A DNA stretch of 64,000 nt, from assembly GCA_013239625.1 (NCBI GenBank), contig MU053645.1, positions 1 through 64,000 of the forward strand. Direction: 5' to 3'. This document shows, piece by piece, positions 19,301-49,150 of the stretch; position 1 is the first letter of the stretch; every line of letters begins with the position of its first letter. This DNA is from Lama guanicoe (lineage: Eukaryota). Under the pieces are notes generated by a model. The model did not search any database. It saw only the letters and a list, made by a program, of their open reading frames with translations, and was not told the origin of the DNA. The translations under genes were made by a program, and so were the position numbers.

Positions 19301-19570
19301 GAAAACTGTCGAGAATAGGCATTGGCTAGACTGGTATTTGTGCTGATGATCCAGATCAACACAATGGCTAAACCTGACAATCCTTCCAAAGATGGAAAAG
19401 TTTGGGTAAAAATCAAAAAATGGAGAGAAGGAGCTATAGTCGTTGAGGTTATGGAATGGGCTATGGAATAATGGAAATCAATGATATTGTCTCTTCACAC
19501 AAGTATACCTTAATGCTCAAAAAGGTGAAGCCACATATTTTCATATTTTCTAAGACCATCCTTGCTTTTT

Positions 19571-19753
19571 TTTTTTTCAGACTTGGTATTCCTCAGTCGG
19601 ATTTGATTCTATTGTATTTTTTTAAACATTTTTTTGTGGGGAGGTAATTAGGTTTATTTATTTATTTATTTATTTTTAATGGTGGTACTGGGGATTGAAC
19701 CTAGGACCTTGTGCATTCTAAGTACACATTCTACCACTGAGCTATATGCCCTT
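19571..19753 (-). mobile_element. Camelid vic-1-like SINE with an extra 3' tail
   Basis: tRNA-like head at ~19683-19753. TSD ATCCTTGCTTTTT at 19558-19570 and 19754-19766. Confidence 0.9.
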
Positions 19754-21409
19754 ATCCTTGCTTTTTGAATTTGACAAGGTCAAACGGAAAACTGGAAACC
19801 TGAGTGGCATTGGTCCTGGAGACATTTTGGTCATACAATATGATAAAGATAGTCCTATAGTTAATGACTGAGTGGAACCCTAGTAATGTGCCAGTATCTT
19901 TTGACTCTTATTTTTCAGCTTTTATCTACTACAAAGGGTATTATTTTGGAAGGAATCTCCAGGAACTACTCCCTACTGGGGTATTGGTTCATGGAGTATA
20001 CAGCCCCTGGCAGACTAATTGCTGTGTAACCATGGCACTTTAACTTGCCATGATCCCATTCCAAACCATAAACTTTGATGATAACTAATTAGAAAGGTCC
20101 CTGGTTATAATGGATGAAAGGCCGCAGTAGCATTCCCGGCATGCCACAGTGTATTATGCACTGAAATAAATTACTCTTGTTTTTGTGATTGGAAAGCCAT
20201 TGAACAGAATAGAAAACAGTTTCTAATGGGAATTAAGCAGTGGACAAATCACAGATAAGTTCTAATTCTCCTAGGGAATGACCTCAACTTGAGCAATTGC
20301 CTTAGGTAAAAAAGTCATATGACAGTACTGATACGAATGATCTGATGTACTGAGTGAAAGCTTTCTCAGGATACGACACTGATAGAAAACAACTGGCCTA
20401 GGAAAAGCTGAATTTAGCTAACCATCAGCTATATTACTATGTTAAATAGTTCTTCACAAATTTATCACAAGGCACAAATAATAGTAGATTAAGAGGGGAC
20501 ATATGTAATCAAACTTGTATAAAAATATGAAAATGTTAACTTTATAGAATGGATTAATCATTTCATTAAATATATCCTTTCCCTACACTGGCTTCTCCAA
20601 CTGTTAGGCATATTTATGCTGATATTATTGTTGTATCTGTCATATAAATACTATACTGAATGTAGATGCACACAAAATATGATAATTTTTCTGTAAGAGG
20701 GCTTACAGAAGGATCCGGGCTGCTGATTGGGCAGGAAAGGATGAACTAAACTGGCCTGGATTCCTCAAACACTGCATATTCTAAAGAAAAGACTGTCTTC
20801 AGAGCCAGCCTTTGACTAACTCCTGGGAAATAATCTATGTACACTGGAATATTCTACCTAATAAGTTTGTTTTTGCATGCAGGTAAGTTTATCATTTATG
20901 CTGAAGGCCCGTTTTAGCTCAGGAATGGTAGGAGGGGCCTATATGACTGACTGCCTCCGTATCTCTGGCCACAAAGGCGCAGATGAAATTCCTTGGTTGG
21001 CAACTTCACATGAGTTGTCACACATTGTTGCGGGGGGAATTTAAGCATATCCTTGTGCAAATCCACTGGTAGGGGACATCTGGAAGCTTGAGACTGGTTT
21101 CTCCTGGACTTCATCCAATGTACATTTTCCCTTGCATATTTTGATCTATTTGACCTGAAATTTCATTGTTATAAACTGTAAATGTGAAAAAAAAACCCTG
21201 TAAATGTGGGCATAACAGCCTTTTAAAAATTTCTGTTTGAGTCCTTAGAGAAAATGATTAAGCATGAGGGTGAAACAGCTTGTGTATTGAAACATGGACC
21301 ATGTGGTAGAAAATTTAAGTGAAGACAAATAAACCAAGTTTAGTATGTTCCTTAATGTGATTTTGTTCATTAACCAATGAACCAGTTGGAGTGGTATAGG
21401 TTGGAGTGG

Positions 21410-22563
21410 CATAGGTTAGAGTGGCTGACCTCCCAACTATGAATCTGACCCTGAGAGTGATTGTATATATCCTCGTTTTCATACAATGCCACACTAATGC
21501 AAGAAATATGTAACATGTTGGTTTTGTGGCAACTGACCATGCTATCAGTTTCCGATAGATTGATCATATAGAATTACAGGCAGAAAAGGGGGGAAATCGG
21601 CATCATTTACAGGCCTATACAAAGTCTATCATCATAGGGTGTTTGTATGTGTCTGTGTCTGTGGGTTGAGGTATATGCTGGGGGTTGATGGTGCTAGACC
21701 CCTCCTATTTTGTGGGAGACAATTGCAGCTCATGTGAAGAGGATCCTGAGGGGGCTGAGTCCCCAGCCAGTTTTCCCTTCCTTGATTCTGTCAATGAAGA
21801 TGGTAGCACTGTGTGCTAGGTGGGCCAATTTGATATCTAATTTAATAAAACAAAGGCCTCTGTATTTTTCTAAGCAAGCATCCTTGTTTAAGAACGCTTT
21901 TTTTCTAGTACTTTAAAGATGTGTCATAGGTCATGATAATAGCTACATAGAGTAATAATCTTTTCACAATTTAAGAAGCACACGTAAAACGGGAAGTTAT
22001 AAAACAGGAGTTGGCAAATTTTTCATTGAAATGACAGATATTAGATACCCTATACTTTGGGGGCCATACAAGTCTCTATCCCAATTACTCAGCTCTGCCA
22101 TTGTAACAGCAAATCAGCCATAGACATCAAGATAAAAAATGAGGGCAACTATGTTCCAATAAAATTGATTTTAAAAAAAGGCAGCAGGCCAGATAGTTTG
22201 GGACCGCTGGTATAAAGGATTAGATTTTAAATGTTTGGAAAAATCTAGTGTTATCTCTCTGGGCTCCAATTCATCATCATCTTGCTTACAGCCACTCACA
22301 TAGTTGAGTATCATTTTGGAAACCAGTTCTCTAAAGCAATATTTATCTGGTTTTTTTTTCACCAGCAATTTCCATCTCAATGTGACTGCCCTTTACCTGT
22401 AGCATAAAGCACAGGTCCCTGAACAAAGACAGTTTCATGTCAGCTTAAGTGCCTGCGAGAGCAGATGGCAGGTAAGGGAAATCTGAATCTCTCAGTCAAC
22501 ACGCATTAGAGTGTGTACAGGTGCTGTGGCCAGGACTCTGATAACGCTGTTTTTCCTTTACCA
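21410..22563 (+). repeat. Inverted repeat, near-identical left core (module copy B)
   Basis: Reverse complement of 36235-37502. Mirrored ORFs 22171-22380 and 36532-36741 are identical, and 21710-21916 and 36996-37202 differ by one residue. Confidence 0.98.
22005..22212 (+). mobile_element. hAT-Charlie MER58A-like DNA transposon (mirror copy at ~36700-36907)
   Basis: caggagttggcaaa...actcagctctgccattgta...cagccatagac...gttccaataaaa. Confidence 0.85.
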
Positions 22564-23262
22564 CCTGTCTCCCATTTGGATCGGATATTTGAGAACGCTA
22601 CAGGGAGACAGGAAATTGAGGAGAGAGAGAAACAGGTTGCATTTCCTTTCTGCACCCTTATTCCTACCAGTGTTATCCCAACAAAGGCCCTTCAGCCAGC
22701 AGGGCCATGTGGTTTCAGTAGGGCCAGGAAGGACAGGTTTGCATATTTCTTCTAGTTGCAGGGATTTTGAACCTCACACCCTCTCAGAAAATTCAGCAGC
22801 ATCAGCTGCTCTTTCCCCTTTGCATCTAAGTTCTTTCCCCTTTACTCAAGAAGCCTCCTCTGTGATCATAAGGCTCAGCACCAGCCAAGCAACTCTCCCT
22901 CCTCAGAGATGAGTTCACAGGCTTGTAGGGTGACCTCTCAGAGCCCCTTTCAGAACCACCATTAACTGAGCATCCCCCTTTCCTCACAAGTTTGAGTCCC
23001 AACAAATAGGGACCCATCTTCCTCCTTTTTGGATTCTCAGACACCTTATATTCTCTTAGTTTGCCCTGCTCCAGGACTGGGAATTCCTTCCTATTCCTGC
23101 TATCTCTGTATAACATTAGTCCTCCTGTTTGTCTGTTTAGACATCACCAGCCTGTATAAGCAAGTCCCTCTATTAAATTCACATTCTTAGCAGCGTGTGG
23201 TTTCTAAACAGAAACCCGACCTCAACCTGCTTGATATACGTGTTTCTGACTGGATCCTGCCT
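22520..23262 (+). mobile_element. Ancient ERVL solo LTR (LTR41/LTR78/LTR33-like)
   Basis: 5' ccaggactctg and 3' ccctctattaaatt...gtgtggtttct...ctgactggatcctg. Related copies lie at 30410, 36010 and 48620. Confidence 0.65.
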
Positions 23263-24559
23263 TTGCTTTTTATGACTACTTCTTGGATCTGCTGATTGAG
23301 TGTCTCCTATAATTTGGGGGAAAATTCTCTGTTATTTTTCTCTTCAAATATTGCTTCTTTCCTAATCTGCCTCCCTGTCCTTCGAGGAATCCAGTAACAT
23401 ATCTCTTTGAAATCACATTTTATCTCCTAAATCTTTTACATAGTTTTTTGCATTTTCTCTCTTTTTCATTTGTACTTTTAAATCTTAACTAGCATATATT
23501 TCATTATTTCTTCCTTTGTTATGTCTAATCTGTTATACAGTAGATTCTTGATTTCAGCAATTTTCAGGAGGGGGACTGAGCTTCCAGATTTTTCCGTTTG
23601 ATTTGTTAAAATCTCTGCAGTTCTTTCAGATAAATTTTCATGAGGAATATACATTTGGATTCTAGTGAAATATCTCTACAAATGCTTTTCCAAAGCTTTC
23701 CCTTGATTTTTAATTTATCTGCTATTATTATACTCCACTTGTATTGGTTTGCATTCATTTAGGCTTAATATTTCTTCTTATATCTCCTTATGTTTTTAGA
23801 AAGTTATGTTAAGGTGCAAAACTGCACACACTTCTTATGAAATAGTGTAATGTACTGGAATAGTAAATTTGAAAGTCATCAATCTCTATGAGCTATGATC
23901 CTCTTTCCTCTTGCTTTCACATCAAATCCCCTTCATCAGTTTTGGAAATAGCATTCATAATGTTTTATTTTTGTTTGTATGTTTTCACTAAGGGTTCGTG
24001 TGGCTTTTTGTTCCAAGAGGAAACTATGTAGAATGATTTTCCAAACATATGAGAGTTTTATATGAATTATACAATATTGGCTATATTTTTATACCTAATA
24101 TTTTCTATGTTAATATTTTAAAAATTCCCCTATTTAAATGGTTGCACAACTTTCTAATTTCTCCTTATACAACAAGTGACTTTGTCAATTCTATATAATA
24201 ACACCTTGCTCTTTTTATCAGTTTTTTATGACAAAAGAAAATGCAATAAATAATCCTTTGAACATGGGCACTATTTACCTGTTAGTGCAGCCCAGGGCTG
24301 AAGAACTGCTGAAGTACGCAAGTAGTAATCTTTCCTGAGAGTTAGCAAATTTGGAATTCTCGTCTCCAAAAAAGAAGTTACTATCAGCTTTGTAACCCAA
24401 ACCCAATAAATAATTTAATTACAATAGTAATGAAATTCTCACCTTGATATCACAAGGCATGAAGGGCAAAATGGCAACTTTAAAATGATACTGGCTTGCA
24501 AAACCAAAAGCAGAATATGAATTTTTCTGAGGGAATGGATAAGCAAAGAAGGCAAAATT

Positions 24560-24860
24560 CAAGGTGGAATTAAAAAACAAAATGGAAGGACATGCTGTCA
24601 ATGAAAAAGGTGGAGTAGAGAGCTCCAAAATCTCATACTTCCAAAAAAGCAGCAAGTCAATTGGAAAAAAAGTAAAAATTTACTTTATGAGAATTCTGGA
24701 AACAGAAAAAAAGTTTTCAGAAACCAGGTAAATGTTTAATAAAGAAAAAACAATAGAATCTCAGTAAGAGAGCTCTGTGGCACTTTAACTTGCCATGATC
24801 CCATTCCAAACTTCCCGAGGAAGCCCAGACATTTGACTTAATAGACAAAATCTTAAATAA
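24560..24860 (+). mobile_element. Old LINE-1 5' region fragments
   Basis: Similar to the L1 5' region at 60700-60830 (gtaagagag...gtg.cact/attttaactt). Confidence 0.55.
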
Positions 24861-25713
24861 CAAAGACACTAGCCAATGCTCAGCATTCCACTCAGTGAGC
24901 CTCCAGTAACCTCATGCTCATTACCAAGTCTTTGACATTCTTTCTAAGCATGCTCATATTAAGAAACATGACATTATTTAGGTCCCCTTACCCCACATAA
25001 ACCTCCAAAACAAACACTTAAGAAAGGGGTTATCAGACTCTAACTTCCAAACTAATATATTGATAAGGCATGAATGTTTCTTATATGACTGCAGGCTTCA
25101 TTTCTTGTATAGAAATTTAATCATCAACGAAAGAGCAAATGTGCAAAATTCAGTGTCATAAAATATATTAGAAAATGTAAAGTACTTATTTGGGAATATT
25201 ATTGCTTGATCATCCTCAACATACTGTGAAGTTAATGTGTGGAGGATTCCTTGTAGTAATATTTGCCCTTTATGTTGATTTAATTGTGAATTCTCACCTT
25301 GCAGCCTTATTTTATTTAAGGATAAATTGAAGTACTGGATACTTGTGTATGCCCAAGGTCCTCTGAGAAATTGGGGGTAGATAAAAACTTGTTGGGTGAT
25401 GTTCTGTATCCTAAAATGATCACATTGTTCTAAAGGTGTATACGAATCTAGCAATAGAGGGTATATTGGGACAGAGACAAAGAATAAGATGACAGGGCAG
25501 TTTAATGGTTTTACTGAAGAGATTTCCATATCAATTGTTTAAGAATATATTCTCTTTTGGTAGAAAAACATAACTCAAATTATTATTTCTGAGGTTTGTG
25601 GAATGTGCCCCATCAAAGTGATTCACATCAAGATGCAGATGTGAAAATATGCTATGGTATTGTTTTAAAAGGCTATTCATAGAGTTTATTTTAAAAAAAA
25701 GTATGGATGAAGA

Positions 25714-26170
25714 ATTTGTCTTTCTCTGTCTGACTTCACTAAACATAACACCCTCCAGATTTTTCCATGTTGTTGCAATGGCAAAATTAAAATTCTTTTA
25801 TATGGCTGAGTGATATTTCATTGGAGATATATACCACAGCTTCTTTATCAAATACTCTATGTTTTCACTTACATGTGGAATCTAAAAAATAAAGCAAATA
25901 AATGAATATAACAAAACAGAAACAGACTCACAGATAAAGAGAACAAACGAGTGATTACATTTGGGGAGAGGGGTGGGGGAGGGCAAGATGAGGGAAGGGG
26001 ACTAAGAAGTACAAACTATGAGGTGTAAAATAAATAAGCTATAGGGAATATAATCAATTTTTTATAATAACTTTCAGTGGAGTACAACCTATAAAAATAT
26101 CGAATTGCTATGTTGTGCACCTGAAACTAATATTGTAAATCAACTATACTTCAATAAAAAATAATAAAAA
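25714..26170 (+). mobile_element. 5'-inverted, truncated LINE-1 3' end
   Basis: 25714-25850 is antisense and 25851-26170 is sense with a poly-A. The two pieces are adjacent in L1 order. Confidence 0.8.
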
Positions 26171-26488
26171 TACATGTATGGGTAGAATAAAAAAGCCTGG
26201 GGGGATAGACACTCATGTTTACACTGAAACTCTCAACCAATTCTTAGAATTTTCAGTGAGCGTTCCTACGATGAGGGGGAACAAAGAGATGTAAACAATA
26301 TATACCCTTGTGTTAAACAAAACACTGTTTTGAGAGGGAGACACTTAGACATACAGGCTAGCCTTGTTGTTGGGTGATGGTGGAATATTCCACGGGCTGG
26401 AGAGTCTTGCCTGTGAAACTTGTCTCTAGTTGCCCTAGTGTCCTTGGGTGTGTTTCCCTTTTAGTCTCGCTGTGCAGATTATCAGCTC

Positions 26489-26507
26489 TGGTCAGCAGGT
26501 GGCACTT
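26489..26507 (+). promoter_or_regulatory. CTCF-binding motif candidate
   Basis: TGGTCAGCAGGTGGCACTT compared with the core consensus TGGCCACCAGGGGGCGCTA. Confidence 0.6.
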
Positions 26508-26982
26508 ACCTATATTCCTGTGACTCCTCAGAACACAGAGGTATTACATTTATTTTTTTTGAAAAAGATGCTTATAACACAACATGGGGCAAAATACGAA
26601 CATGCATGCAAAAAACCATGCCTGCAATGGAATAACAATGTTGCTTACACAAAGTGAGGTAGAACGCTACGTAGTGATGTGGAATGATAAGTTGCATGAA
26701 AAATGAAAAATGCCACTGAAATAGGGGATACTGACTCTCGCGTTTCCTCTCATTAACTGAGGAGAACGGATCCTCTGAACATTCATGTAGGGTGCGCACC
26801 AACATGAGGGATATAGTAGACCTAATCTCACCATTTTGCAATGCAGTTGGCATTTTGCATTCTGATCCATTACTGTGTTGTGTTTTTTGGAAACAAACGG
26901 TGAGAGAGAGTTGATGTTTTGAAAGTCAGCTTACGAGACTATATGAAGCAGATTGATGGCCACCTTCCTGAATTCTATAAGA

Positions 26983-27185
26983 ACAATTGTTCTCAAACTT
27001 TTTGTTCTGAAGACCCCCAAAAGATTTGTTTAGGTGGCTTATGCCTGCCAGTATTTGAAAATTAGAAAATAATGCTAAACATTTAAAATGTATTTATTTA
27101 TTCATTAAAAATAACAATGTTAAACATTTCATGCTTAAATTAAAAGCATATGCTTTTTGAAAAATAACTATATTTTTGAAAACTA
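26983..27185 (+). mobile_element. hAT Charlie1-like fragment
   Basis: gttctcaaactttttg...gacccc...gaaaaataactatatttt. Confidence 0.65.
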
Positions 27186-27214
27186 AAAGGTTTTATTTTT
27201 TATCAGCCTTTTAA

Positions 27215-27345
27215 AGGTAAGAGACATTATTACCTTATTTCACCAAAATGGAGACAAAGGAACAAAGTGGTTAAGCAGCAATCGGAAAGTCACATGGTTG
27301 ATGAGTGGCAGAGTTGAGACACAAACCCTCATCTGTCTTTCAGAA
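27215..27345 (-). mobile_element. MIR fragment
   Basis: ggttaag...aagtcacatgg...gagtggcagagttgaga...aaaccc. Confidence 0.6.
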
Positions 27346-27580
27346 GGCTCTGATTTAAAATGAGTGACCATGAAAACATCCCACTATTCACCCTTCTGGA
27401 GAAACTAGCTAGGCTAGATCATGGGTCTTGACAACTACCTCCATTTCCTGTGCCCTAAGAACCTGTTGAAATCCTTTACGTAGTTTGTGCACTGGTGTAT
27501 CTCTAATTCAGCATGGCCCTTCTTTTGTGGATTCCCAAGTAGACAGGGGTGATTTTGTTTTGCTCTAGAGTGCACAGATC

Positions 27581-27785
27581 CAGTGATGTGCTGGAGCTGG
27601 CTCAGACCAGTGCACGAGAGCTGAGTCTCTGCGTCACTTGCCGATGCAGCTTTCAGTGACATCATCTTGGTGGCTAAAAATAGTTGGGCACAGTAGGGGG
27701 ATTTTAAACCAAGGAAAGTGGAAATCCTGGAAACCAGAACGGCACACCTCCTCCCCTGGGTACCCGTTTCATGCGCATTACTGCC
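27581..27785 (+). mobile_element. hAT-Blackjack MER63-like element
   Basis: cagtgatgtgctggagctggctc...ttcagtgacatcatcttggtggct. Confidence 0.7.
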
Positions 27786-28269
27786 CAGCCCCGGCCACGC
27801 AGGCATTGTCTCTAGGCTTATTATAGGAGAAAGTGCTGCGTCATAGTGCAGAACTGTCTAATATGAATGACTGCGTGGCAGAACTTGCGTGTGCTTGTGG
27901 ACCCTGATAACTTTGTGCAGTCCTTATCAACCTTGCTAAAATTAAAAAAAAAATCTTCACATGGTTTTAAGAAACCTACCTCTAAGCGTATTATTCACTG
28001 CCAGTGTGGTTTTAGCATTACCTGGGCATAGCAGATTCCCAAACGTGAGATAATTAGCTTTATCTCCCTGCCGTCCTAGGACACGGGATGCTTTGTGGGA
28101 GCTGTTGTGCTTTTTGGAAAGTGTTTTCTCCTTGCAGCCCCAATAACATACATTTGTCCAACTGTAGGCACAGTTTCCTTTGGCCCTGGCAAAACCTGAT
28201 TTTCTAGTTTGCCTTCCTCTGACATCCAGACACTTGCTGCTCGGCAGGTCATTTTAAAGTGACCAACAA

Positions 28270-29460
28270 TCCACTGGCTTCCACCTGCACAAATGCACCT
28301 GGACTCTTGGGTACAGCAGGCTGAAAGGTGGTTTGTAACAGAAACTGGAACATGAATCTGTGTCTCTAACAGGGGAACCATACTTCTTAACCCCTCTTTA
28401 CTTCCTTGATAATCCCTTCTGCTAAAAGCTTCCTTTCTCTAAATGCCTGTTCCATGGAGAACTTCAAGTATTATCTCTAATATTCATTCATTCGTTAGAT
28501 TGGGAATGGTATAAGCGACTAAGATCAAGAGCAACATGCAGCTTCTGAGGATGTACGTGCATTTCCCGGTTTCCTCAGAAAGCTAACATCAACAAGAACA
28601 TTTTGATGACATTCTGGTTTCTATGACAACTTGCATATGCCATTTTATCCTAGAGGCAGAAACATTTAACAATGATGTTTACAGGCTGGATGGATTAGCA
28701 GCAAAAATATGCAGCCTAGTAGGTGACTACTATCACTGTGAGATAGTTTGTGTGTGCATGTTTGTGTATGTGTGTTTTGGAAAGGTGAGGTGTTTAGTTG
28801 GAGATTAGGTGCTATAAAGCCTCCTGTTTTATTGAAGAAGCTGGAAATTCCTATTAAAGAGATCCTGAGGTAATGAGTCAACTTTCTGTGTTCTGTGTCC
28901 TAAGATGACACTTGTTGTGTGAGGGCATTGTGATCTGAGATCTTTAAAGCAGAGGTCTCCAATTATTTCTGATCTTACATTTCTGTTTTAAAAAGAAATT
29001 TGCTTATACCCTAAGGATGTACTTTGCTCATTTTATATCTACTTCTACTAAAAAAAGATGATGTCTATGTTACGGGAGAGAAAATTTGAAGTCAAAATAT
29101 GATGAGCTAAAACGGGTAGGATTGGAAGCTCTAATGTGACTTTGTGGAACTGCAGGGTTAATATGGTGCTCACCTTGAGCAGCTGACACATAGATTAAGA
29201 AAGATCTTCTTTTTAAAAGACAAATTTGCTGTCATCACACCACTAATTAAAATCTGTAAATGGCTCCCCGTTTAAGCATAAGTTACAAGCTCCTTAACAA
29301 AGTTTCTGATTTTTGTGTGTGTGTGGTTTAGGAAGTAGCTGTTGCTGGTGTTATAGTTATTTCTGTATTTATTATGTTTCAAAAGGAAGTCATAGCATCT
29401 AAAGGAATTACTGTTGCATTTATTGTCAGGATATGTGCTTTAGAAAGAAGTGAGTACTAT
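28270..29460 (+). repeat. Module copy C
   Basis: Shares blocks with copy A (atgacaact, ctatcactgtga, ttttattgaagaagct, ttctgtgtcctaa). Confidence 0.8.
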
Positions 29461-30007
29461 GCCTCTCTCTCTCGGCACCAAATCTTACACACTGCTCTTT
29501 GATGCTGAGACTCTAATGCTATTGTTAAATGAACTCTTGTCCAAGTTATTATTTATCTCAATAATTAATAAGGGAACCTATAAACTATTAAACAGTTTTC
29601 AAATAAGAATTTGAGATACCGAGCTTGTTTTTCTATAGGACAAATTGTATGTGCTTTGCTAAGAATAGGAATCATTTACATTGCTATGAACAAGAAATAA
29701 CAGCAATACTGTCTGTTTTCTACATGAATGTTTATGTCTCTTATAGATTGGTAAAGTTGTCTAATCAATCAAATACAATGAAAAGGCCATCTGTCTACAG
29801 AATGAACTAGCCAATCCCTGGAGGGCCCATTAGCCAATGCCTGACGTTCCACTGTAGGGCCCCGGTAATCTCTTGTGCCTATTTTCAAGTCTTTGACATG
29901 TTTTCCAGGCAGAGTGGTATTAAGAGCTCAAATTTTAAGAGAATTCCTCACTAGTAGAATTTTTTTTTTCTCTTCATTCCCTGCATAAGTGCTCAAAGTT
30001 ACCACTC

Positions 30008-30026
30008 TGGCCAGTAGGTGGCACTT
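30008..30026 (+). promoter_or_regulatory. CTCF-binding motif candidate
   Basis: TGGCCAGTAGGTGGCACTT, in a context paralogous to 26489. Confidence 0.7.
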
Positions 30027-30039
30027 GTGATATCGTGCT

Positions 30040-30370
30040 CATTGTGTGCAGCTGACACACTAATGAATAAATATTGTCAATAAACATTCTCTTTATTTAT
30101 TCTCAGTAAAGGAAATAAACAAGTTTCCTGCCATCACACCACTAACTGAAGCCTGTAAATGGCTCTCTGTCTATTATATAAACATAAGATAAGAGTTCCT
30201 TAACAAATGATCTGGATTTTTGGTTTTGCATTTTAGAAAATGGATGTTGCTAATGTTAGAATTACCTCTGTATTTATTGTGTTTCAGAAGAAATGCATAA
30301 TATCTGCAAGACTTGCTGTTGCATTCTTTGTCAGCTATATGCTTTAGGAAGAAGTAGGTCCTGGTTAAAG
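30040..30370 (+). repeat. Direct duplicate of 29170-29460
   Basis: Both copies contain catcacaccactaa...ctgtaaatggctc...tccttaacaaa...ctgtatttatt.tgtttca...ctgttgcatt. Confidence 0.9.
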
Positions 30371-30409
30371 GATAGCAAAGTCTTTTGGCTCCATATCCTG
30401 TACACTGTT

Positions 30410-30900
30410 CATGATACTGAGACCAGGAGTCTGCCAAGTCCATTACCAACCTGCTCCCTGTTGGACTCTGCCAGTCAGGTTTACCAAAGGGAGACAGGAA
30501 AGAGAAGCAGAATGGACCTTCCTCTCTGGTCCTAGGTCTCCCAATGTCACTTGAATAAAGGCCCTAAGCAAAAATAAGGCGATATGATTTCAGTAGGGGC
30601 AGAATATCTAAAATACATTTTTTTCATCCAAATTTCAAGGACTTGATTTATCAGGTCCCCTCAGAAAGATCAGTGCTAGCACACTGGTGAACTAACTCTC
30701 TCTCTCTCTCTCCAGGGTTCTGGGTCTCAACTTTGAGGGTGGCCTCCTCTGAGATTCCGATGCTCTGGCATGAGCAGAGGAAGGACCCCTCATCTAAACT
30801 CATGAGTTCTCAGAACTGCTATATTTTCGCTTGTTTTCTCCAGACCTAAGAGTTCTAGCCCATTCTTACCTCTGCTATCTCCACATTACTTCATAGTTTC
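30410..30900 (+). mobile_element. ERVL solo LTR (LTR41-like), related to 22520-23262
   Basis: ccaggagtctg...agggagacaggaaa...aaaggccct...tttcagtaggg. Confidence 0.55.
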
Positions 30901-31085
30901 CCTTATGCCTTTTTCAGCCTCAAAACAATTCTAAGTTAACTCTGACTGAAAAAAAAGAAAGAAAAGAAAGAAGAAAAAAGAGGGCTCTTGCTTGTTAATC
31001 ATGACTGTTTTTGGTTTTGTTTCTTCTCTTTTCTGTTTTTCTCCTTGGCTTTGTTTTCTGTTTACTACAACTGGCCTAGGGGTGG

Positions 31086-31087
31086 GG

Positions 31088-31126
<39 letters not shown>
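31086..31126. repeat. (TG)n microsatellite
   Basis: Visible run. Confidence 0.95.
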
Positions 31127-32819
31127 AAGGTTATGTTTGTTTTTCAAACACATCTTAAATATTCTACTTGATTTTTGTTCATTATTTTGGAAAATTCTCC
31201 GCTGTTGTCCCTTCCAATATTTTTACTTTCCCAGAATCTCTCCTGGAACTCCTTACATACCTCTTAGGTGTTTCAGTATATACATTTGAAAAAGAAATAT
31301 TTCCTTTGATCAATATAAAATATCAGCCTAAGAACTTTTCAAAGATCTTTTCCTTATGTTTTCTTTGTATGGGACCATTTTGCTACCATTGATTACTTTC
31401 TTTTTGTTCACTTATATCTGATAGCTCATTTCATGCCTCCTTAAATTCTCTATAAAGTTATATTTAAGTGTATATGTACATATAAAAACACCCTCTGTGT
31501 AATATTTTACAATATGATGGGGAAAAATCAAGTTTCCCTTTACTATTCGTTTCCATTTTTGTTACTCTCTTGTTTCATGTGTAACTATGTTATCAGATTT
31601 CCGTTTACCATTCAAGACTCATTTGTACCCCATTTTATCCTGAGATAAACATACATAGCATTGCTCTCTACGTGTAGTATAGTGTTTTACATGACCTGTA
31701 TCATTTGCACTTCGTTGATCTCTAAGCTTATTATATTAACTGGAATTTTTCTTCTGTGTCAATGCATTTAGCTCTGCATCAGTCTTTGTAATGGATAAAT
31801 AACACATCCTTCTTGGCTTAGACTATCAATTTTTAAGCCTGTCCCGTGGATAACACATTGCTATATCCAATTATGTCATTGTGGTTATAATGAACTATGA
31901 TGCAATGACTTATCTTGTGTACATGAGCAATTTCTTATCCTTGTGCACGACACAGGGGAATTGATAGGGTCTGAAAGACACATCTTGTTCCCTCACTTGA
32001 ATGTTAATAATTACAAAGGTCTCACCTTTAGGAAAAGAAACTACTCTTCACTTTTTAACCGAAAACACTATGCTTGATATTATTACAATTACAGGGCACA
32101 CTAGATACCTTTCCTATGGCAGGGTAATAGGGACTGAAGGGTTAAAGAGCACCTTGGAAAGAAAGTTGTCCTGCTGGACTGGAGAAACAATCTGAGTTTT
32201 GTAAAGGAATGGGCTTTGAAAGGGAGGGTATTCACTCTAGTCTTAAAATAATGTCTTAAAGATAAACCATGAGTGTTGCAAAGTTCTTTTTCTGAAGTGC
32301 TCATGTTTTCACTTTGCTAAGTAGGAGACGGTCTGGTCTTCTAAGGCATCTACCTGAAGAATAGGTTTTGTGACTGGTTATTTGTTTAGAGAACAATCAG
32401 GAGTCAGAGATTCAGTACTGAAAGTTTGGTAACGTGAATATGTGTATGCATATTTACAGTCATACGATATAATTCAGAAAATGAGGAATAAGTCTAACCT
32501 AATTTATTCCGAATTAGCAAACTGAGGGCAATTTTGTGCATCCTCAGATTGCAATAGTTGCCATTTAAATGCTATGGACAAAAGACAACCTTCCTAAAAT
32601 GAGGCACGACCCCTCTGAAGAAATATATGAATTGGTGAACAACGTAAAAGGACAATTTTAAAGACAGAAATTCTTATGTAATTGTTCTGAAAATTCACTG
32701 CTAACCTAATGGTATCTTATAAACTTTTTAAAAATGTACATGGGAAAATATATGCTAAAATTAATCCGGAGAGGAAAAGGTGCAATAATAGGCAATAATG
32801 TGTTTTCCTTATAAATACA

Positions 32820-33830
32820 ATTTTATAGACTGTGCCTTTATTATGGTAAGGGGAAATTCTTACTCATATTTTATGAAACTACTTTTCTGGGCAGCCTTTA
32901 AAATTATAAATCCTAAAGATTACAAGAGCTTTGCTAAATAGTAATTGTAGTCAGGAGTCCAAGGGGTAAAGATGAAAAGAAATGAATTACTTCCTCCTGG
33001 TAATGGTGTGGTGGCTTTTTTTTTTTAATTAAGAAAATTATCCTGATTTTGAGAGAATTCCTTGCCGAAGATTATCTTTTTTCCCCAGTAGTTATTAAAG
33101 CCCTCACTTAAGAAAGGAGTTAACAAAATAGAGCTTCCAAAATAATTCCTCCAAAAACCATGGCTGTTGATTGGAGAAATAAAGTTAATTTGCAGCTAAT
33201 TCTTCCATTCTTTAACTAAAGAGTGAATGTCATACATAGAACAAAAATTAAACAGGGACTTTGAAAAATTAAAATACTCAATTGAAGAATTTATTTCTTA
33301 ATGATCTAAAATTGACCATGATATTGTACATTTCAGAACTTTCAATTATAGTATTTCCTTATTGTTATAATTTCATTGTGTACTCAGTCTTTTTAGACAG
33401 TGTTTGGCTGAACTCTAAAGTGCAATATCAGATATACTTTTATACCCATGGACCTTTGAGAAATTGAATTTATTTGAAAAAATTAGTATGGTATTTTTCA
33501 ACATTCTATGGCATTGGTACTGGTGTGCAAAAGGGGATCAATATTTATATATCTTCATTTTTCTCTCTGTCTCTTGTGAATGTGGAGTGTGTGTGTATGT
33601 GTGTGTGTGTGCTGGAGTGTGGGGAGGTTTTTGTTTGGAGGCTAATCAATCTGATTTTATGGAAAAAGTTTATAAGTCCTGCTGAGGGGAAACTGGAGTG
33701 ACTGAATCACTATTTTTCCCTCTCTTTTTTTTCCCTGTGTCCTCAGATGACACCTGTAGTTTGAGAGCTGATTTGTCTCTGAGTTCTCTAAAACAGAGGC
33801 CTCCAAAGCTGTACGATCACATACGCCGTC
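32820..33830 (+). repeat. Module copy D (uninterrupted paralog of 14220-14750 plus 21273-21870)
   Basis: aatagagcttccaaa vs aatatagcttccaaa; tagtatttcctta vs tagtatgttcctta; ctgtgtcctcagatgacac vs ctgtgtcctaagatgacac; aaaacagaggcctc. Confidence 0.7.
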
Positions 33831-35109
33831 CAAGAAAAATGCTTGTGCAGATTATCACCAAAATATGTATATTTAAATATCATAACGTATTTCATATCAT
33901 ACACACAAGTATGTGAAAAGAAACATACACATATATGATTTATCATGGGAATAATTTTTACATTATGAAACATAAACTTTGAAGTCAATAATACATGAGC
34001 TAAAATATACAAGTGAATTATAATACATGTTTCTACAATGAATACAGAAAATTGGAAAAATATATCGCAATCCATTAACACAGTATATCTGAGTGGGAAG
34101 GTGGCAAGTCACACTGAGAAAACAATTTCATCTTTCACATTATTCACTTCTGTATTGCTCAAAATTTTTAAAAATACATTTTGGAAACACTGAAGACATT
34201 TAAAAAAAAAGATATCCCGGTAAAATGATGTTGAAAATATTTATTTACGTGAGAAGGTGGTCAAATGTGCTGTTGAATGAAGAAATATAGTTTTATATAA
34301 TATGTGCATGTATGTGTGTACAGATGCATAGGAAATGTGTTGGAAGCACATGCACCATAATATTAACAGTGAATGTCTTCTCTGTATTTCTTTCTACATA
34401 TATTTTAGTTCCTCTAAGCTCCTTAAAGTTGTTTTAGAACAAAAATATATCAACATCAGGGACCCTAGTTTGGTTGCATACACACGAGAACATTCTCTCT
34501 CTCTGTCACACACACACACACGGTACTATTAAATCTTTGTGTCCAAAAAGGATGCTATCATGAAAGCAGTAGTTCTGAAATAGGAATGGATTAGCATAAC
34601 CTAAGTAACATAATTTGGAAATATTTTGATATGCAGCAGAAGGAGGAAATAAATATATCATCTACAATATAGCTGATATTAAGTTATCACACCTCTTTCA
34701 GAATAACATATGTTCTAGAATCGGTGTGGGGAATATTGTTAATTAAGTTTGTTCAATTGGTTTGATTTCCTTCCTGCTTTGTACTTTATGGATTGACATT
34801 AGAAATGCACAGTACCCGGATTACCACATTTGATGCCATTTGAGCCCTGGAAAAGCAGTGTACCTCAGAAGCGCTGAACAGGGCAAAGGCTCTGGTGGAC
34901 AGGAGTTGGAGTGAGAATCAAGAGATCCAGCCAGCAGAACCAGATCTACCATGGTCCGTATAATATTGGATAAGACTGTTCCCATTTTCCTAAACATGTT
35001 TTTGAGATCGTTTTATGTTGAGATTTTATGGCACAATTGATTTTCTCCTTGCTCTACAGCTACTATATGCAGGTTGCAGCTGAAGGCCTGTACCTCAAGT
35101 AATCTTATA

Positions 35110-36010
35110 TTTTTAATTGCTATAAATATATATATATATTATGCAATTTTCCATCTAACCATTCTAAGTGTACAGATTCATATTGTTATGCAATCATCGC
35201 CACCATCCATCTCCAGAATTTTTTCATCTTTCAAAATTGAAACTCTGTACCTATTAAATATCTCCCCATTCCATTCTCCACTCAGTGCATGAGAAACACC
35301 ATTCTACTTTCTATCTCTATGAATTCGACTACTCTGAGTTTGAGGTACTTTTTAATACTCACATAAGTGGAATCATATGTTATCGGTCCTTTTGTGATTT
35401 GTTTTTTTCACTTAGCATAATGTCTACAAGATTCAGTATTGTTGTAGCATGTGTCAGAATCTCCTTCTTTTTGAAGGCTGGATAATTTTCCATTGTATGA
35501 CTATAACACATTCTGTTTATTCATCTCAAAATCAGCATGGCTTACTTCCACATTTTGGCTATTATGAATAATGCTGCTGTGAACATGGGTGTACAAATAT
35601 CTGTTTGAGTCTCCAACTTCAATTCTTTTGGGTGTATAGCTAGGGGTAGAATTGGTAGATCATAATTCTATTTTCATTTATAAAATTACATTTAACTTTA
35701 TAAAAGTAAAATATTTAAATTTTAATTTTATACATAATTCTATTTAAAAAATTTGTGATGGTCCACCATAATGATTTCCATAATGCTGCCCCAGACTACC
35801 TTCCCACCAGCAATGTACAAGGCTTCTAATTTCTCCACATTCTTGCCAAGGTTTGATACTTTCTGTTTTGTTTCGTTGTTTTGTTTCGTTGTTTTGTTTG
35901 TTTGTTGTTGTTGTTGTTGCTTGGATAATAGCCATCCTAATAGGTGTGAAGTAGTGTGGCACTGAGGCTTTAAATTGAATTCCTCTAATGATTAATGACA
36001 TTGAACATAT
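35110..36010 (-). mobile_element. LINE-1 3' part (L1MB-like)
   Basis: Antisense 3' UTR and ORF2 C-terminus. ORF 35744-36034 contains SLIIRGIQFK...YFTPIRMAII. Confidence 0.85.
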
Positions 36011-36234
36011 TTTCTGAGGGGGTGCAATATCCAATGTCCCTGAAATTAGAAGAAAATTTACAAACTGGTCTTTCTTGCCCCTACAGGAACTACATAGCCC
36101 TGCTGGCTGAAGGCCTTTGTTGGGATGACACTGACAGAGAGCAAGAAGAATCAGAAAGGAAATGTAAGCTGCTTCTCTTTCCTCTTGATTTCCTGTCTCC
36201 CTGTGGCATTCTGAATGATCAGACCCAAATGGTT
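36010..36234 (-). repeat. Diverged inner flank of the right arm (LTR part), mirror of 22564-22790
   Basis: ccctgctggctgaaggcctttgttgggatgacactg vs cagtgttatcccaacaaaggcccttcagccagcaggg, with many substitutions and indels around it. Confidence 0.85.
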
Positions 36235-37502
36235 GGTAAAGGAAAAACAGTTATCAGAGTCCTGGCCACAGCACCTGTACACACTCTAATGCGTGTTGAC
36301 TGAGAGATTCAGATTTCCCTTACCTGCCATCTGCTTCCTCTTAAAGTGCATTTCATACAAGGAAGTCAGCAATAAGTACTGAGAAGACTATGCTTCTCTC
36401 TGAAAACATAATTAATAGAATGAATTACTAACTGCATCATCAACAATATCTCCTCGCAGGCACTTAAGCTGACATGAAACTGTCTTTGTTCAGGGACCTG
36501 TGCTTTATGCTACAGGTAAAGGGCAGTCACATTGAGATGGAAATTGCTGGTGAAAAAAAAACCAGATAAATATTGCTTTAGAGAACTGGTTTCCAAAATG
36601 ATACTCAACTATGTGAGTGGCTGTAAGCAAGATGATGATGAATTGGAGCCCAGAGAGATAACACTAGATTTTTCCAAACATTTAAAATCTAATCCTTTAT
36701 ACCAGCGGTCCCAAACTATCTGGCCTGCTGCCTTTTTTTAAAATCAATTTTATTGGAACATAGTTGCCCTCATTTTTTATCTTGATGTCTATGGCTGATT
36801 TGCTGTTACAATGGCAGAGCTGAGTAATTGGGATAGAGACTTGTATGGCCCCCAAAGTATAGGGTATCTAATATCTGTCATTTCAATGAAAAATTTGCCA
36901 ACTCCTGTTTTATAACTTCCCGTTTTACGTGTGCTTCTTAAATTGTGAAAAGATTATTACTCTATGTAGCTATTATCATGACCTATGACACATCTTTAAA
37001 GTACTAGAAAAAAAGCGTTCTTAAACAAGGATGCTTGCTTAGAAAAATACAGAGGCCTTTGTTTTATTAAATTAGATATCAAATTGGCCCACCTAGCACA
37101 CAGTGCTACCATCTTCGTTGACAGAATCAAGGAAGGGAAAACTGGCTGGGGACTCAGCCCCCTCAGGATCCTCTTCACATGAGCTGCAATTGTCTCCCAC
37201 AAAATAGGAGGGATCTAGCACCATCAACCCCCAGCATATACCTCAACCCACAGACACAGACACATACAAACACCCTATGATGATAGACTTTGTATAGGCC
37301 TGTAAATGATGCCGATTTCCCCCCTTTTCTGCCTGTAATTCTATATGATCAATCTATCGGAAACTGATAGCATGGTCAGTTGCCACAAAACCAACATGTT
37401 ACATATTTCTTGCATTAGTGTGGCATTGTATGAAAACGAGGATATATACAATCACTCTCAGGGTCAGATTCATAGTTGGGAGGTCAGCCACTCTACCCTA
37501 TG
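36235..37502 (-). repeat. Inverted repeat, near-identical right core (module copy B')
   Basis: Reverse complement of 21410-22563, plus a 117-bp segment (36336-36452) missing from the left core. Confidence 0.98.
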
Positions 37503-39489
37503 CCACTCCGACTAACCAATGAACAAAAACTTATTAAGGAATATACTAGCAGCCTTTAAATAGTAGGTATTTCATGAGCCAAACTTTCCAAACAATGGTA
37601 ACAAAGAAATTTTTGGCTTGTTTATAGGCTCAGATTTCTCATAGACTCACTGTCAGGATTAACTTGGAACCAACAATACCACATGCTTGGTCCTGAAGGG
37701 ATGCCAAAATCTGCAGACCTTTAAAGTTGTCTCCAATACTCAATTGCCACAGTTGAGCCCTGAACTCAGGAACAGGGAAGAGGCATTGGAAACATCTCAG
37801 ATGCCCTTAACTTAGTGCCTCAGGACAGACTTCCACGTCAAGGAGGCTCTGACTGCCACCATTGACCAACAGAAATACACACTCAATTCTACTAAAGTTG
37901 TGTCACAGGAATTCCCGATAGCAGACTGTGGTGCACAGAATATTCAGTCAGTTCCTCACACTGATCTATTACCTCAGCCTTCAGGCATAAGTCACTGCAA
38001 CCCCAGTTGCCAAGAAATTCCCTTGGCACTTGAATCACAAGATGGATATATACTTTCTGTGACTCATTAAATTTATCATTAGAGCATCAGCATCATACCA
38101 GATGACAATGTCTAAACATGTGACTCACATTGCTATGACTGAGTAAATGAAGTAGAAGAGAAGATGTCAGAACCTGACATTGTGATGACTCTGTGCAGAA
38201 CATTGGGCTAAAGCAATATACAGGAAAGTTTTTTTTTGTTTTTTTGAATACAGAAGTTATCATCAGAGATTCTTTTGTTATAACGGGCTGTCACGATGGT
38301 AAGTTGGTTGGTGTGGGTGGAATGCCCACAAGCTCTCAGGATACTTTGTATAAATATCATGATAGGAGAAGGTAGAGATATCAAAGCCTTCAGGTACAGA
38401 GGCAGGCAAGCCTCACATGGATTTACTGTCTAGGCCAAAACAGGCAGTCAATATATGGAAAATATATATGAAGATAATAGGAAGAAGGAAAAGAGTTCTG
38501 ACAAGAGGTTGAACTCCCACAGACTGCCCTCTGTTTGACAAACACTGAGAAATGAATTTCAACAAGTGACATTTAGGAATTTACTTCCCTTAGGAAATGC
38601 TGGAATTTACACACTGCCAATGGTAATGATGTTCAGTTGTATGACTCTTACAGATATGATAGATTAAGAATTTTGAAAAGAAACTGAATGAGGGTTGACA
38701 AGGAACTCCCTGATTTATTAAGGTTCACAAATATATATATAGTTTCTGTCACACATAGCTATTCAGCTTAAGAGAGACACAACTGTTACAGTGAATCTCA
38801 GAATTAAAAACAAAGAGAAAATCCCCTTTGTCATCAGTCCTGGGCTGTCTTATTCAAGAAGCCACCACATTCTTCCTGGGATACACAGAAATAAGGCCAG
38901 GTGGGACAGTCATTGCATGTGTATAAGTGAAGGAAAGTTTTCAGTAGTTTCTCTATGAGGGAAAAACCAAGACAGATATCATGACCCACATTACAGCTCT
39001 TATAATTTTTTCATGGATGTAAAATAGTAGGGTGGGTCCATGGGTAGCTTTCCCACCAGAGAATCATTCAGTAAGTTAGTTGAGGTTTGAGTGTGGTTCT
39101 GCTACTCAAGCCATGCATGGCTATAAGCATTTTTCTTAGCTGCTCTGTTTCCAAGTCTCCCTTTCTAACAAAGAGACAAAATATCAACATCTCTTCAATG
39201 CAAGGATTGATTAGAGGTCACAAACATGCACTGTATTTTATGTGGAATATCAAGGATGAATAAAAGTGTTAAAAAAAGTCCAAGGTTATTTCTGGTAGTA
39301 TGGAGGGGACCACAGTTCATGGGAATATAAGACTTCAGTCTAGAAATGCTGGGCTCCAATTGTTGGCATTTAAATTGCCAGCCGATAAATATTTAGATAT
39401 TTTTCTAAACTTTCTCAGCATGCTGCGTGGGGAAGGAAAATGAGATTTATTACACACCCTCAAGTTCACAGTAAGGAAACATTAAAAAA

Positions 39490-40592: not shown

Positions 40593-40829
40593 TTGGTCAT
40601 TAGTACATACATTGAACAATACCTAGCCCATTAAAGTATCCCTCAAAATCTCAGAAATTTTCAGCTTTTACAAATATTCAAATATTTGTACTGACCCAGA
40701 TCTTCTAGAACCTGGTTTAATATTTAAATACAAACTCAAATTAATATAAATAACAGATATTTATCTCACCCAATCTATGACCGATTAATTCATAGTTTTT
40801 TAATGATCATCAAGAAATAAAATATCTAA

Positions 40830-42648: not shown

Positions 42649-43840
42649 AATGGCAGCCACAACAATCAGGCAAGAAAAAAAAATAAAAGGGATCCAAATT
42701 GGAAGAGAAGAGGTAAAACTGTCACTATATGCAGGTGACATGGTACTATATATAGAAAACCTTAAAAGCTCCACACAAAAACTACTAGAGCTGATAAAAG
42801 AATTTGGCAAGGTAGAAGATACAAGATTAACATACAAAAATCAGTTGCATCATTTGTAAATATTTTCTCCCATTCCATAGATTGTCTTGTTTTGCTTACG
42901 GTTTCCTTTGCTATGCAAAAGCTTGTAAGTTTAATTAGGTCCCATTTGTTTATTTTTGCTCTTACTTCTATTGTCCCTTATCTTTTTTTTCAATAATGCT
43001 TTGGCAGTTCCGAGTCTCTTGTGATTCCATATAAATTTTAGGATTGTTTGTTCTAGTTCTGTAAAAAATGTCCTGGTTAATTTGATAGGGATCACATTAA
43101 ATCTGTAGATTGCCTTGGGCAGTATGGCCATTTTAATGATATTGATTCTTCCAATCCAAGAGCATGGGATATCTTTCCATTTCTTTAAGTCATCTTTAAT
43201 TTCCTTAATCAATATTTTGTAGTTCTCTATGTATGTCTTTTACCTCCTTGGTCAGATTTATTCCTAAGTATTTTATTGTTTTGGATGTGATTTTAAAAGG
43301 GATTGTTTCTTTACTTTCTTTTCCTGCTAATTCATTGTTAGTGTAAAGAAATGCAACTGATTATATTCTTTTTCGTAGTTTTTTGTTTTAGGCTTATTAG
43401 AAGATATTGAATATATTTCCCTGTGCTATATAGTAGGACCTTGTTGTTTATCTATTTTATATATAGTAGTTTGTATCTGCTAATCCCAAACTCCAATTTA
43501 TCCCTCCCCTCCTTATCCTTTTGGTTTGTTTTCTATGTCTGTGATAATATAATATATTCACTATCTTGTAATAAATATATAATAAAAAATATGAAAAAGA
43601 ATATATACCTGTATATATAACTGAGTCACTATGCTGAATATAGTTCCCTGTGCTATTGATGTTTACCTATTTTATATATAGTAGTTAGTACCTACAAATC
43701 CTAAACTCCTAATTTATCCCTTCCCACCCCCTTTGCCCCCTGGGAACCATAAATTTGTTCTCTATGTCCATGAGTTTGTTTCTGTTTTGTAGATAAGTTC
43801 ATTTGTGTCAATTTTTTTTTTAGATTCCACATATAAGGAA
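42649..43840. mobile_element. Rearranged younger LINE-1 (sense ORF2 piece, then antisense ORF2 and 3' UTR pieces)
   Basis: ORF 42641-42859 (+) [20 protein letters not shown] and ORF 42931-43212 (-) [28 protein letters not shown]. Confidence 0.9.
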
Positions 43841-43859
43841 ACTTTTACACTAAAAGAGT

Positions 43860-48618: not shown

Positions 48619-49150
48619 GTGTATCAGTCAGTGCAGTCAGGGAAACAGAAACCACATGGGTTAGTAAGAGTGGGCATTTAATAGAGAGAATTGGCTCAAC
48701 AGGCTTGTGATGTCTAAATAGACATAAATTGAAGATTAAAGTCATACAGAGAGATAGCAGGCAGACCACGGGAAGATCTGGGTGTTCTGAAAACCTGTAA
48801 GAGGGGAGGATGGTTCCCTCAGTGCTAGGACACAGACTTCTGAGGAAAAGAGACTGCTTAACTTGTGTTGGATGCTAAAAGGGCTCAGCAAAGGGAAACC
48901 CACAAACCAGGGAACCTGTCTCTGCATAAGTGAGCTGCCTGGATGGTACTGAGCCATACAATCTCAGAGAAGGACCCCAGTCCACACAGACCTCTAAGGA
49001 AAGGGAGATCCCAGAAGACTGCTGCTGTAGGGCTTTCTGTTGGTGCACTCATGGGTGCCTTGGAGTTGGCAGATAAACAGAAAAATGGACATTTCTGAAG
49101 GTCCTTTGTTGGGATGACACTATGAGGAATGGGAAACAGAGAGGGAAGTC
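48619..49150 (-). mobile_element. ERVL solo LTR related to 22520-23262
   Basis: tgtatcagtcag...gaaaccaca...tttaatagag...gtgatgtctaaa...agagatagcagg, and cctttgttgggatgacact. Confidence 0.7.

Follow-up and report, generated by a model that had tools for sequence, protein, structure and literature searches.

Large palindromes of the X and Y chromosomes have been defined as having arms longer than 8 kb that are more than 99% identical (Jackson et al. 2021, PMC8327919, PMC8981503), and protein-coding genes are present in 21 of the 26 palindromes on the human X (Jackson et al. 2021). Smaller inverted duplicates are known from the study of RNA editing, where 197 human pairs longer than 300 bp and more than 96% identical have been described (Barak et al. 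2020, PMC7006430); the term 'gene conversion' is absent from the main text of that article. Here, we describe a locus in Lama guanicoe that is a further case of a known process, the concerted evolution of inverted repeats. Judged from its sequence, it is a gene-free, much older inverted duplication around near-identical cores. We consider it most likely, with a probability of roughly 0.8, that repeated gene conversion between the arms is what keeps these cores identical. Our literature search found no paper tied to the locus, which has no name and may therefore have been described before.

The window (the whole 64,000-nucleotide stretch of DNA that was analysed) has a GC content of 36% and dense L1, which is no more than suggestive of a location on X or Y. 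The original prediction had described a gapless mirror between 21410-22459 and 36453-37502. Self-BLAST and ungapped comparison (coordinate sum 58912) extend it to 21400-22459 against 37512-36453, with 1056 of 1060 positions identical and no gaps. Two substitutions had been placed near 21700 and 21795, and both are real (21699 and 21795), but a third at 21416, inside the same range, had been overlooked; the remaining mismatch is at 21402, and the perfect runs between the arms measure 282, 95 and 664 bp. Identity had also been said to resume after a 117-bp indel and to reach about 22563. Beyond the 117 extra bases of the right arm (36336-36452), 22460-22545 and 36335-36250 are indeed identical at 86 of 86 positions, followed by a 2-base indel and 17 further identical bases. 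This amounts to 4 mismatches over 1146 aligned core bases, an arm-to-arm divergence of 0.35%. The core arms are non-coding, about 1.2 kb long, 99.6% identical and in opposite orientation across a 13.7-kb spacer, and they form the sole inverted pair of at least 90% identity that megablast finds in the window (Table 1).

Since matches to the 117-bp segment are present in older copies, at 29280-29450 and 30230-30400, the indel is a deletion and the segment is ancestral; the gap is absent from all three DNA runs used for comparison (X1, X12 and X14). The core also contains a 205-bp transposon relic, which we take to be MER58-like. It has no further copy in the window and is missing from the older copy u28. 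The transposon had been described as homogenised along with its surroundings, and the two copies are identical at 205 of 205 positions, which we count as support for conversion.

Table 1. Features of the inverted duplication and its surroundings, in window coordinates
Feature	Position	Strand	Basis or remark
Left homogenised core	21400..22545	+	1056/1060 + 86/86 vs right core; 117 bp absent between 22459 and 22460
Right homogenised core	36250..37512	-	merged contigs of relatives span 36250-37495
117-bp segment absent from left arm of assembly; ancestral	36336..36452	-	matches older copies 29280-29450 and 30230-30400 (0/300 shuffles each)
DNA-transposon relic, terminal inverted repeats, 8-bp target-site duplication (6/8 matching)	22005..22209	+	205 bp
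Mirror copy of transposon relic	36703..36907	-	205/205 identical to left copy
Middle patch, arm-identical in window, unmerged in X12 (36820-36983) and X14 (36792-37014)	36792..37014		deduced from contig ends
Readable part of RNA record 17, run X15; candidate A-to-I hyper-editing	36984..37052	+	8 A>G + 1 C>T among the 9 readable of 10 changes
Left inner flank, diverged	22546..22791	+	81% of aligned columns, K2P 0.22
Right inner flank, diverged	36009..36249	-	interrupted by L1 fragment below ~35990
Left outer edge, diverged	21340..21399	+	matches 37513-37552; 15-bp tandem repeat (21385-21425) on boundary
Right outer edge, diverged	37513..37552	-	matches 21340-21399
Module B, old left arm	14659..14757	+	resumes beyond ERV-like insertion at ~21280-21340 (continuation: 2/300 shuffles)
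Module B, old right arm	40670..40829	-	sequence match to left module B
u13, outer part of old left arm	12966..14254	+	75% of aligned columns vs 45140-43835, K2P 0.31
u44, outer part of old right arm	43835..45140	-	partner of u13
Old decayed ERV-like insertion, left arm only	14754..21294 (ends approximate)	+	two LTRs differ by K2P 0.36
u28, older copy of modules in spacer, with two copies of module E	28290..30781	+	60-74% to core
u33, older partial copy in spacer	33029..33850	+	sequence match
Partial module E copy of older date, beyond right arm	48931..49187	-	sequence match

Past both edges the similarity drops abruptly, as had been claimed. The inner flanks (22545-22791 and 36250-36009) agree in 192 of 236 aligned columns (81%) with 6 gaps and a K2P of 0.22, the outer edges (21340-21399 and 37513-37552) match at 32 of 37 positions, a score reached by none of 300 shuffles, and module B (14659-14757 against 40829-40731) shows 78% identity over 99 ungapped bases. 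These are parts of an old collinear inverted duplication, 12966-22791 against 45140-36009, with a K2P of 0.22-0.31; the collinearity holds when an ERV-like insertion on the left, L1 insertions on the right and a 3-kb block absent from the left are allowed for. The duplication belongs in turn to a roughly six-copy non-coding array of older copies. In the module tree, u13 pairs with u44 (99/98) and u21 with u37 (100/100), which bears out the old inverted duplication that had been proposed. Flank divergence in register with the core (K2P 0.22 and 0.31) gives the arms a mosaic of divergence, and the duplication is older than core identity implies. The larger array, the nature of the 117-bp indel as a deletion and the hint of RNA editing discussed below had all been overlooked.

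Searches for genes and RNA families at the locus gave little. None of the 131 open reading frames of at least 50 amino acids in 21200-41000 reached the Pfam cut-off, in a scan that shorter exons may escape; 7 of these 131, from the window's 420 frames, gave weak matches, 8 in total, and each scored far under the cut-off. Rfam returned nothing at gathering score except four tRNA-derived SINE heads, and nothing near cut-off in the array units, microRNA and snoRNA families included. A microRNA-cluster reading was rejected, as hairpins from a 90-nt scan of 11000-51000 did not align in one module across four copies, and there were no compensatory changes among five predicted pairs (one module, four copies). 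Motifs for V(D)J signals and defensin cysteines had no match, and a CTCF-like pattern had one. In metagenome contigs, a two-part pattern matched nowhere and an 18-mer matched at 101 loci, where the likeness to the array never went beyond a short stretch attributable to chance.

For comparison with relatives, we used contigs from the public runs X1, X12 and X14 (DNA) and X15 (RNA). In such contigs the two arms are fused and variants are lost, and the differences of a relative come without phase to either arm; merged-contig sites such as 37395 could conceal an arm-specific allele. The listing of differences that we used is complete for X12 (21 places) and X14 (16) and short of 66 further rows overall. 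Stretches without coverage in these filtered records (36000-36250 in X12 and X14, 36000-36726 in X15) were given no weight. Both outer junctions are present in all four runs: in each, one record exits the core at 37509 into the reverse complement of 21371-21400, the left outer flank, and another runs into the right flank. Core depth is about twice flank depth in all three DNA runs (35.5 and 31.9 against 20.6 and 21.8 in X12; 37.4 and 39.5 against 20.8 and 21.3 in X14), contig depth being not equal to copy number. In X1, core and left-type inner flank are joined in a 2927-nt record, and no record in the four runs covers a whole arm plus both flanks. The two inverted copies in cis are real.

The distant run X15 has records anchored to both arms. 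Of its 1634 flank letters, 39 (2.4%) depart from the window, as do 21 of 1029 in the two records wholly outside the core, a distance of 2.0-2.4%. Had the arms evolved independently after this split, 23-27 differences between them would be expected, and at most 4 are observed (Poisson p 2e-6 to 3e-8). The arms of one genome are thus closer (0.35%) than genomes carrying both arms are to each other (2.0-2.4%), the left arm of X15 being represented by 112 core bases only (37398-37509), where about 2.7 differences are expected and 1 is seen, too short a stretch to be informative alone. For the nearer relatives, independent evolution predicts 2.6-4.0 arm differences against the 4 in the window, a comparison that is uninformative alone. 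Site 37395 is A in X12, X14 and X15 and C in X1 and both window arms, a pattern that implies that one state reached both arms after the nearer split.

Within the core lies a middle patch of 160-220 bp that is unmerged in two relatives. It has a depth of 14-15 in X12 and X14, its ends differ between the two runs, and it is not broken in X1. X12 has six changes within 36792-36805, and the X14 branch opens at 36792. The second branch of the patch is not among the contigs, perhaps through filtering and not through divergence. The unmerged patch is what the overwriting of an old paralogous version from both sides would be expected to leave. Because two nearer relatives keep it unmerged with different ends, conversion looks recent, patchy and repeated. 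The proposal that the core had been overwritten by arm-to-arm conversion therefore draws support from X15 with its two arms, from site 37395 and from this patch.

We regard it as unlikely that the core arose in one step, by one long conversion or a duplicative overwrite in an ancestor shared by the nearer species, with no exchange continuing since. X12 and X14 have both tract ends, 36250 and 37495, in common, and X1 has the outer one too, the window's four mismatches are consistent with independent drift since the nearer split, and kilobase tracts have been reported for the Y palindrome P6 (PMC3723533). Against this stand the middle patch, which X12 and X14 keep unmerged but which is the same in both window arms and unbroken in X1, the unlike ends of that patch in the two relatives, the distribution of states at site 37395, the left arm in distant X15, whose outer end already resembles the core at about 94%, and the two divergence steps shown by the flanks.

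Under repeated conversion, the repair of a break in one arm would use the other, at a distance of 13.7 kb, as its template and involve no crossover, and the resulting high identity would keep the core serviceable as a template. DNA past the small edge indels would have left the exchange in stages, the outer arms first (K2P 0.31) and the inner flank later (0.22). Conversion tracts probably range in length from a few hundred bases up to about 1 kb, with differences between lineages. A transcript through both arms would probably, as a side effect, fold into a long duplex and be edited by ADAR, as one RNA record suggests.

Between relatives, the core diverges more than the single-copy flank: 20/1245 against 6/1738 in X12 (p=0.0004, or p=0.007 with the cluster counted as one event) and 10/1245 against 4/1738 in X14 (p=0.03), with no excess in X1 (2 vs 2). 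This argues against purifying selection, which on its own had already been thought insufficient and which we reject as the sole explanation. In module C, the u21/u37 branch measures 0.42 against 0.17-0.19 for u13, u28 and u44, and its GC content is 44.5% against 37-41% in the other copies. This long, GC-richer branch is in line with GC-biased conversion (PMC8981503). The u33 branch is also long (0.56) and has no twin copy. GC content is 39.4% for the whole core and 39.1% for the right flank, and sites with a strong base in the window and a weak one in the relative stand to the reverse as 9:2 in X12 (cluster excluded) and 4:5 in X14.

One X15 contig, record 17 (depth 4), carries a cluster of A>G changes within 70 letters. 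The share of 8 in 9 compares with 9/55 for the run as a whole (p about 4e-6, post hoc), and none of the 8 candidate edited adenosines, few as they are, has a 5' G, the base whose depletion is the motif described in PMC5625713. An overlapping record of the same run, with a depth of 7.5, aligns over this region as ordinary sequence. Within the window, 36900-37060 has its sole complementary partner in the opposite arm. We take this one record as a hint of ADAR editing of an arm-to-arm duplex. At site 37433, two X15 records have G, which may be editing rather than a genomic change.

It is distinctly improbable that selection for a long RNA duplex is the main force behind the identity, as an editing substrate, small-RNA precursor or aid to back-splicing, with conversion merely the tool. 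The changes in record 17, the single complementary partner and a very long-lived duplication with sharp ends would suit it, but there is one such record, with a depth of 4 and no matched DNA, and its library may contain DNA; the core evolves faster than the flank between relatives; and the searches found no exon, Pfam match above cut-off, Rfam family (SINE-derived tRNA aside) or conserved hairpin. Near-perfect long duplexes are, moreover, reported to be selected against and often heavily edited if they persist (PMC7006430), and editing is for that reason an expected by-product. We give only a little more room to a doubtful fuller version, in which a gene-free duplication, perhaps early placental in age, keeps its 1.2-kb core complementary by conversion because the core works as RNA, in the form of a reproductive-tissue transcript, a hyper-edited duplex and maybe small RNAs or back-splicing. 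If that were true, conversion would continually renew self dsRNA of a kind usually purged from genomes.

A collapsed or falsely duplicated core, the danger to which the original prediction had pointed, is highly improbable: no DNA run of the three shows the 117-bp deletion, which could be a feature of the assembly or a private allele, and complete arms with their two flanks are not contained in any one record, but the outer junctions recur in every run, core depth is doubled in every DNA run, and the long X1 record has core and left-type inner flank in one piece.

Repeated arm-to-arm conversion is a textbook mechanism, and the value of the locus lies in offering a small, clean natural experiment in a 1.2-kb gene-free tract. 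Staged flank divergence, an internal neutral marker and a patch unmerged in relatives all fall within the size of a single long read. The locus would allow direct measurement of how long the tracts are, how strong GC bias is and how far paralogues must diverge to escape conversion. If the editing hint holds true, conversion would be linked to the supply of long self dsRNA.

Like the large X and Y palindromes (PMC8327919, PMC8981503; Hallast et al. 2013, PMC3723533), the locus has inverted arms more than 99% identical within a genome and less so between species, with signs of GC bias, here tentative and in one module. The uniform arms are about 1.2 kb rather than more than 8 kb, no protein-coding genes were found where they are usual in palindrome arms, and the uniform part is an island in a larger decayed duplication. 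In palindrome P6 the arms diverge less than the spacer between species (PMC3723533), whereas here the core diverges more than the flank. The FLNA-EMD inverted repeats (HsInv0389, P24) are likewise old; they are homogenised in separate mammalian lineages and raised in GC (PMC8327919, PMC8981503, PMC3961182), but their arms are much longer and the spacer here is without genes; the likeness drawn here is one of probable mechanism. HsInv0114, a human NAHR inversion with 2.7-kb repeats and a 14.7-kb inversion without genes (PMC3961182), resembles the locus in its kilobase arms, spacer of about 14 kb and gene-free content; an inversion is known there, whereas here inverted repeats are what is seen. 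The dense A>G cluster, with no 5' G at its few candidate sites, recalls hyper-editing (Porath et al. 2017, PMC5625713), here in one contig. In length and identity the arms also resemble the ADAR-edited long inverted duplicates of Barak et al. 2020 (PMC7006430), with the difference that the duplex here would be old and renewed by conversion.

Self-BLAST of the window identifies two inverted cores that share 99.62% identity over 1060 ungapped bases, the only inverted pair of at least 90% identity in the window. They differ there at four positions (21402, 21416, 21699 and 21795). The right arm then carries 117 additional bases, beyond which a further 86 are identical, followed inward by small indels and a flank in which 81% of aligned columns match as far as 22791/36009. 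On the outer side, similarity persists for about 60 bases. The outer edge of the core carries a 15-bp tandem repeat and the inner edge 2- and 7-base indels. Identity along the pair forms a mosaic. The original prediction had described the pair as the self-comparison finds it, apart from one overlooked mismatch and an 'LTR start' in the core that is a putative feature.

Positions of the duplicated cores and of neighboring features in the window
Feature	Position	Strand or arm	Remarks
Left core	21400-22545	+	
Right core	36250-37512	-	
Ungapped alignment	21400-22459 vs 37512-36453		
Additional 117 bases	36336-36452	right arm	
Identical 86 bases	22460-22545 vs 36335-36250		
Outer similarity	21340-21399 vs 37513-37552		
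Putative converted tract	36251-37495		about 1245 bp; contains the 117-bp indel
Module array	12966-49187	+ at 13 to 34 kb, - at 36 to 49 kb	about six non-coding copies; strand switch near 35-36 kb
Collinear sides	12966-22791 vs 45140-36009	left, right	read outward
ERV-like element	14754-21294	left arm only	old, decayed; two LTRs 71.5% alike, K2P 0.36
tRNA-derived SINE heads (4)	7062-7133, 19680-19751, 47205-47276, 52016-52087		scored as tRNA by Rfam; presumably camelid type
34-pair hairpin	13245-13334		-29.4 kcal/mol; one copy, without counterpart in the other copies; no Rfam match
Direct duplicate	29220-29451, 30119-30355	spacer copy	75%
CTCF-like motifs	30011-30024, ~26492	spacer	by pattern script and by eye, respectively

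The cores belong to an ancient non-coding module array, whose copies sensitive self-comparison detects at 60-75% identity, within a CpG-poor window (36% GC, CpG observed/expected 0.16) that contains many L1 pieces. The two sides are collinear apart from three interruptions: the left contains an ERV-like insertion of 6.5 kb and lacks a block of 3 kb, and the right contains about 3 kb of L1. Arm similarity picks up again directly past the ERV-like element (2/300 shuffles). K2P is 0.31 for the outer arms and 0.22 for the inner flank, and in a tree of the shared module the copies near 13 and 44 kb pair with each other, as do those near 21 and 37 kb. Collinearity, distances and pairing therefore suggest a very old duplication, probably of many tens of millions of years at least, as estimated from uncalibrated distances. 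One module carries a TGA(G/A)TCA-like site, which we take to be AP-1-like, in five of six copies, aligned about 110-130 bp past a TG-rich stretch.

We explain the identity of the cores by recurrent arm-to-arm gene conversion, with a probability of about 0.8. The original prediction, gene conversion in an old inverted duplication, is supported on three grounds: the number of arm differences, site 37395 and patchy merging. An RNA-seq run of a more distant relative (X15), 2.0-2.4% away from the window in single-copy flank, has records anchored to each arm, those of the left covering only 112 core bases; 23-27 arm differences would be expected had the arms evolved independently since that split, and four are observed. 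For the nearer relatives taken alone, the window's four mismatches are evidence neither for nor against conversion. Site 37395 is A in X15 and in the DNA runs X12 and X14, and C in a third DNA run, X1, and both window arms. Merging is incomplete in X12 and X14, where a patch in the middle of the core stays separate and depth drops to 14-15. Judged from the 30-base overlaps of records, the outermost differences of this patch lie at 36820 and 36983 in X12, and at 36792 and 37014 in X14. Six X12 changes fall within 36792-36805, precisely where the X14 branch opens and inside a 205-bp transposon relic that is identical between the arms and absent from the older spacer copy. On the simplest reading, the patch is an old paralogous version present on some copies and overwritten to a differing extent in each lineage, completely in the window's; the other branch in X12 and X14 may be diverged or filtered out. 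Within the X12 cluster, TG of the window lies opposite CA, as if a single old CpG had been lost through decay of one strand in one copy and of the other strand in another copy. GC evidence on the converted tract is mixed.

Under recurrent conversion, a break would repeatedly be repaired from the opposite arm without crossover; high arm identity would sustain further exchange, and the small indels at both edges would bound it. A single overwrite could likewise have produced identical cores, and we consider it improbable: the merged contigs differ between lineages.

Selection for an RNA duplex is a still less probable reason for the identity. Differences from the window number 20/1245 in the core and 6/1738 in the flank for X12 (p=0.0004), 10/1245 and 4/1738 for X14 (p=0.03), and two in each for X1. 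Purifying selection would hardly leave the core more divergent than the flank, but the count may be inflated where merged contigs pick up arm-specific variants. X12 and X14 are in line with the earlier claim that such selection alone does not explain the identity; X1 shows no excess in the core. Searches of the locus found no conserved hairpin, protein gene or RNA family. 

A duplex as such, which would be a probable side effect of conversion, is hinted at by one contig of X15, a run labelled 'reproductive system metagenome' whose even coverage could partly come from DNA. This contig has 151 letters at depth 4, and only 32 bases fit the window. Among its loose letters, compared with the window, A>G changes fall at 37003, 37045-37047 and four positions of the A run 37008-37014, with one C>T and one further change that is not legible; its A run has length eight, consistent with the extra A of X15 in our contig comparison. 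A>G makes up 8/9 readable changes versus 9/55 in the run's own spectrum (p about 4e-6, post hoc). G directly precedes none of the putatively edited A, which number only eight; depletion of a preceding G is reported for ADAR (PMC5625713). The sole complementary partner of this region within the window is the other arm. This single record hints at a transcript across both arms or at sense-antisense pairing.

Mis-assembly, which the original prediction had named as its own undoing, is very unlikely, since contigs of all four runs, compared with the right arm and outer flank (36000-39250), branch at the outer core end, one record following the right flank and the other stopping at 37509 with letters of the left outer flank, and since core depth is raised (32-40 versus 21-22 in both flank records of X12 and X14; 8.5 versus 5.1-5.7 in X1, where the 8.5 record is half single-copy). 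Both arms are present in the relatives. The 117-bp gap occurs in none of the three DNA runs and the segment resembles older copies of the array, so the difference is a left-arm deletion in the assembled haplotype (private allele or polymorphism) or a local assembly error.

The core pair is real and the probable process is of a known type; patchiness across species and the hint of editing place it slightly above routine. Near-perfect long inverted pairs in pre-mRNA are described as rare and often edited (PMC7006430). In its probable mechanism the pair is akin to X and Y palindromes (PMC8327919, PMC8981503, PMC3723533) and to the FLNA-EMD repeats (PMC8327919, PMC8981503, PMC3961182), whose arms convert each other. 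With arms below 8 kb and no gene found, it falls outside the class of large palindromes. In arm size it resembles the short repeats behind human inversions (PMC3961182).
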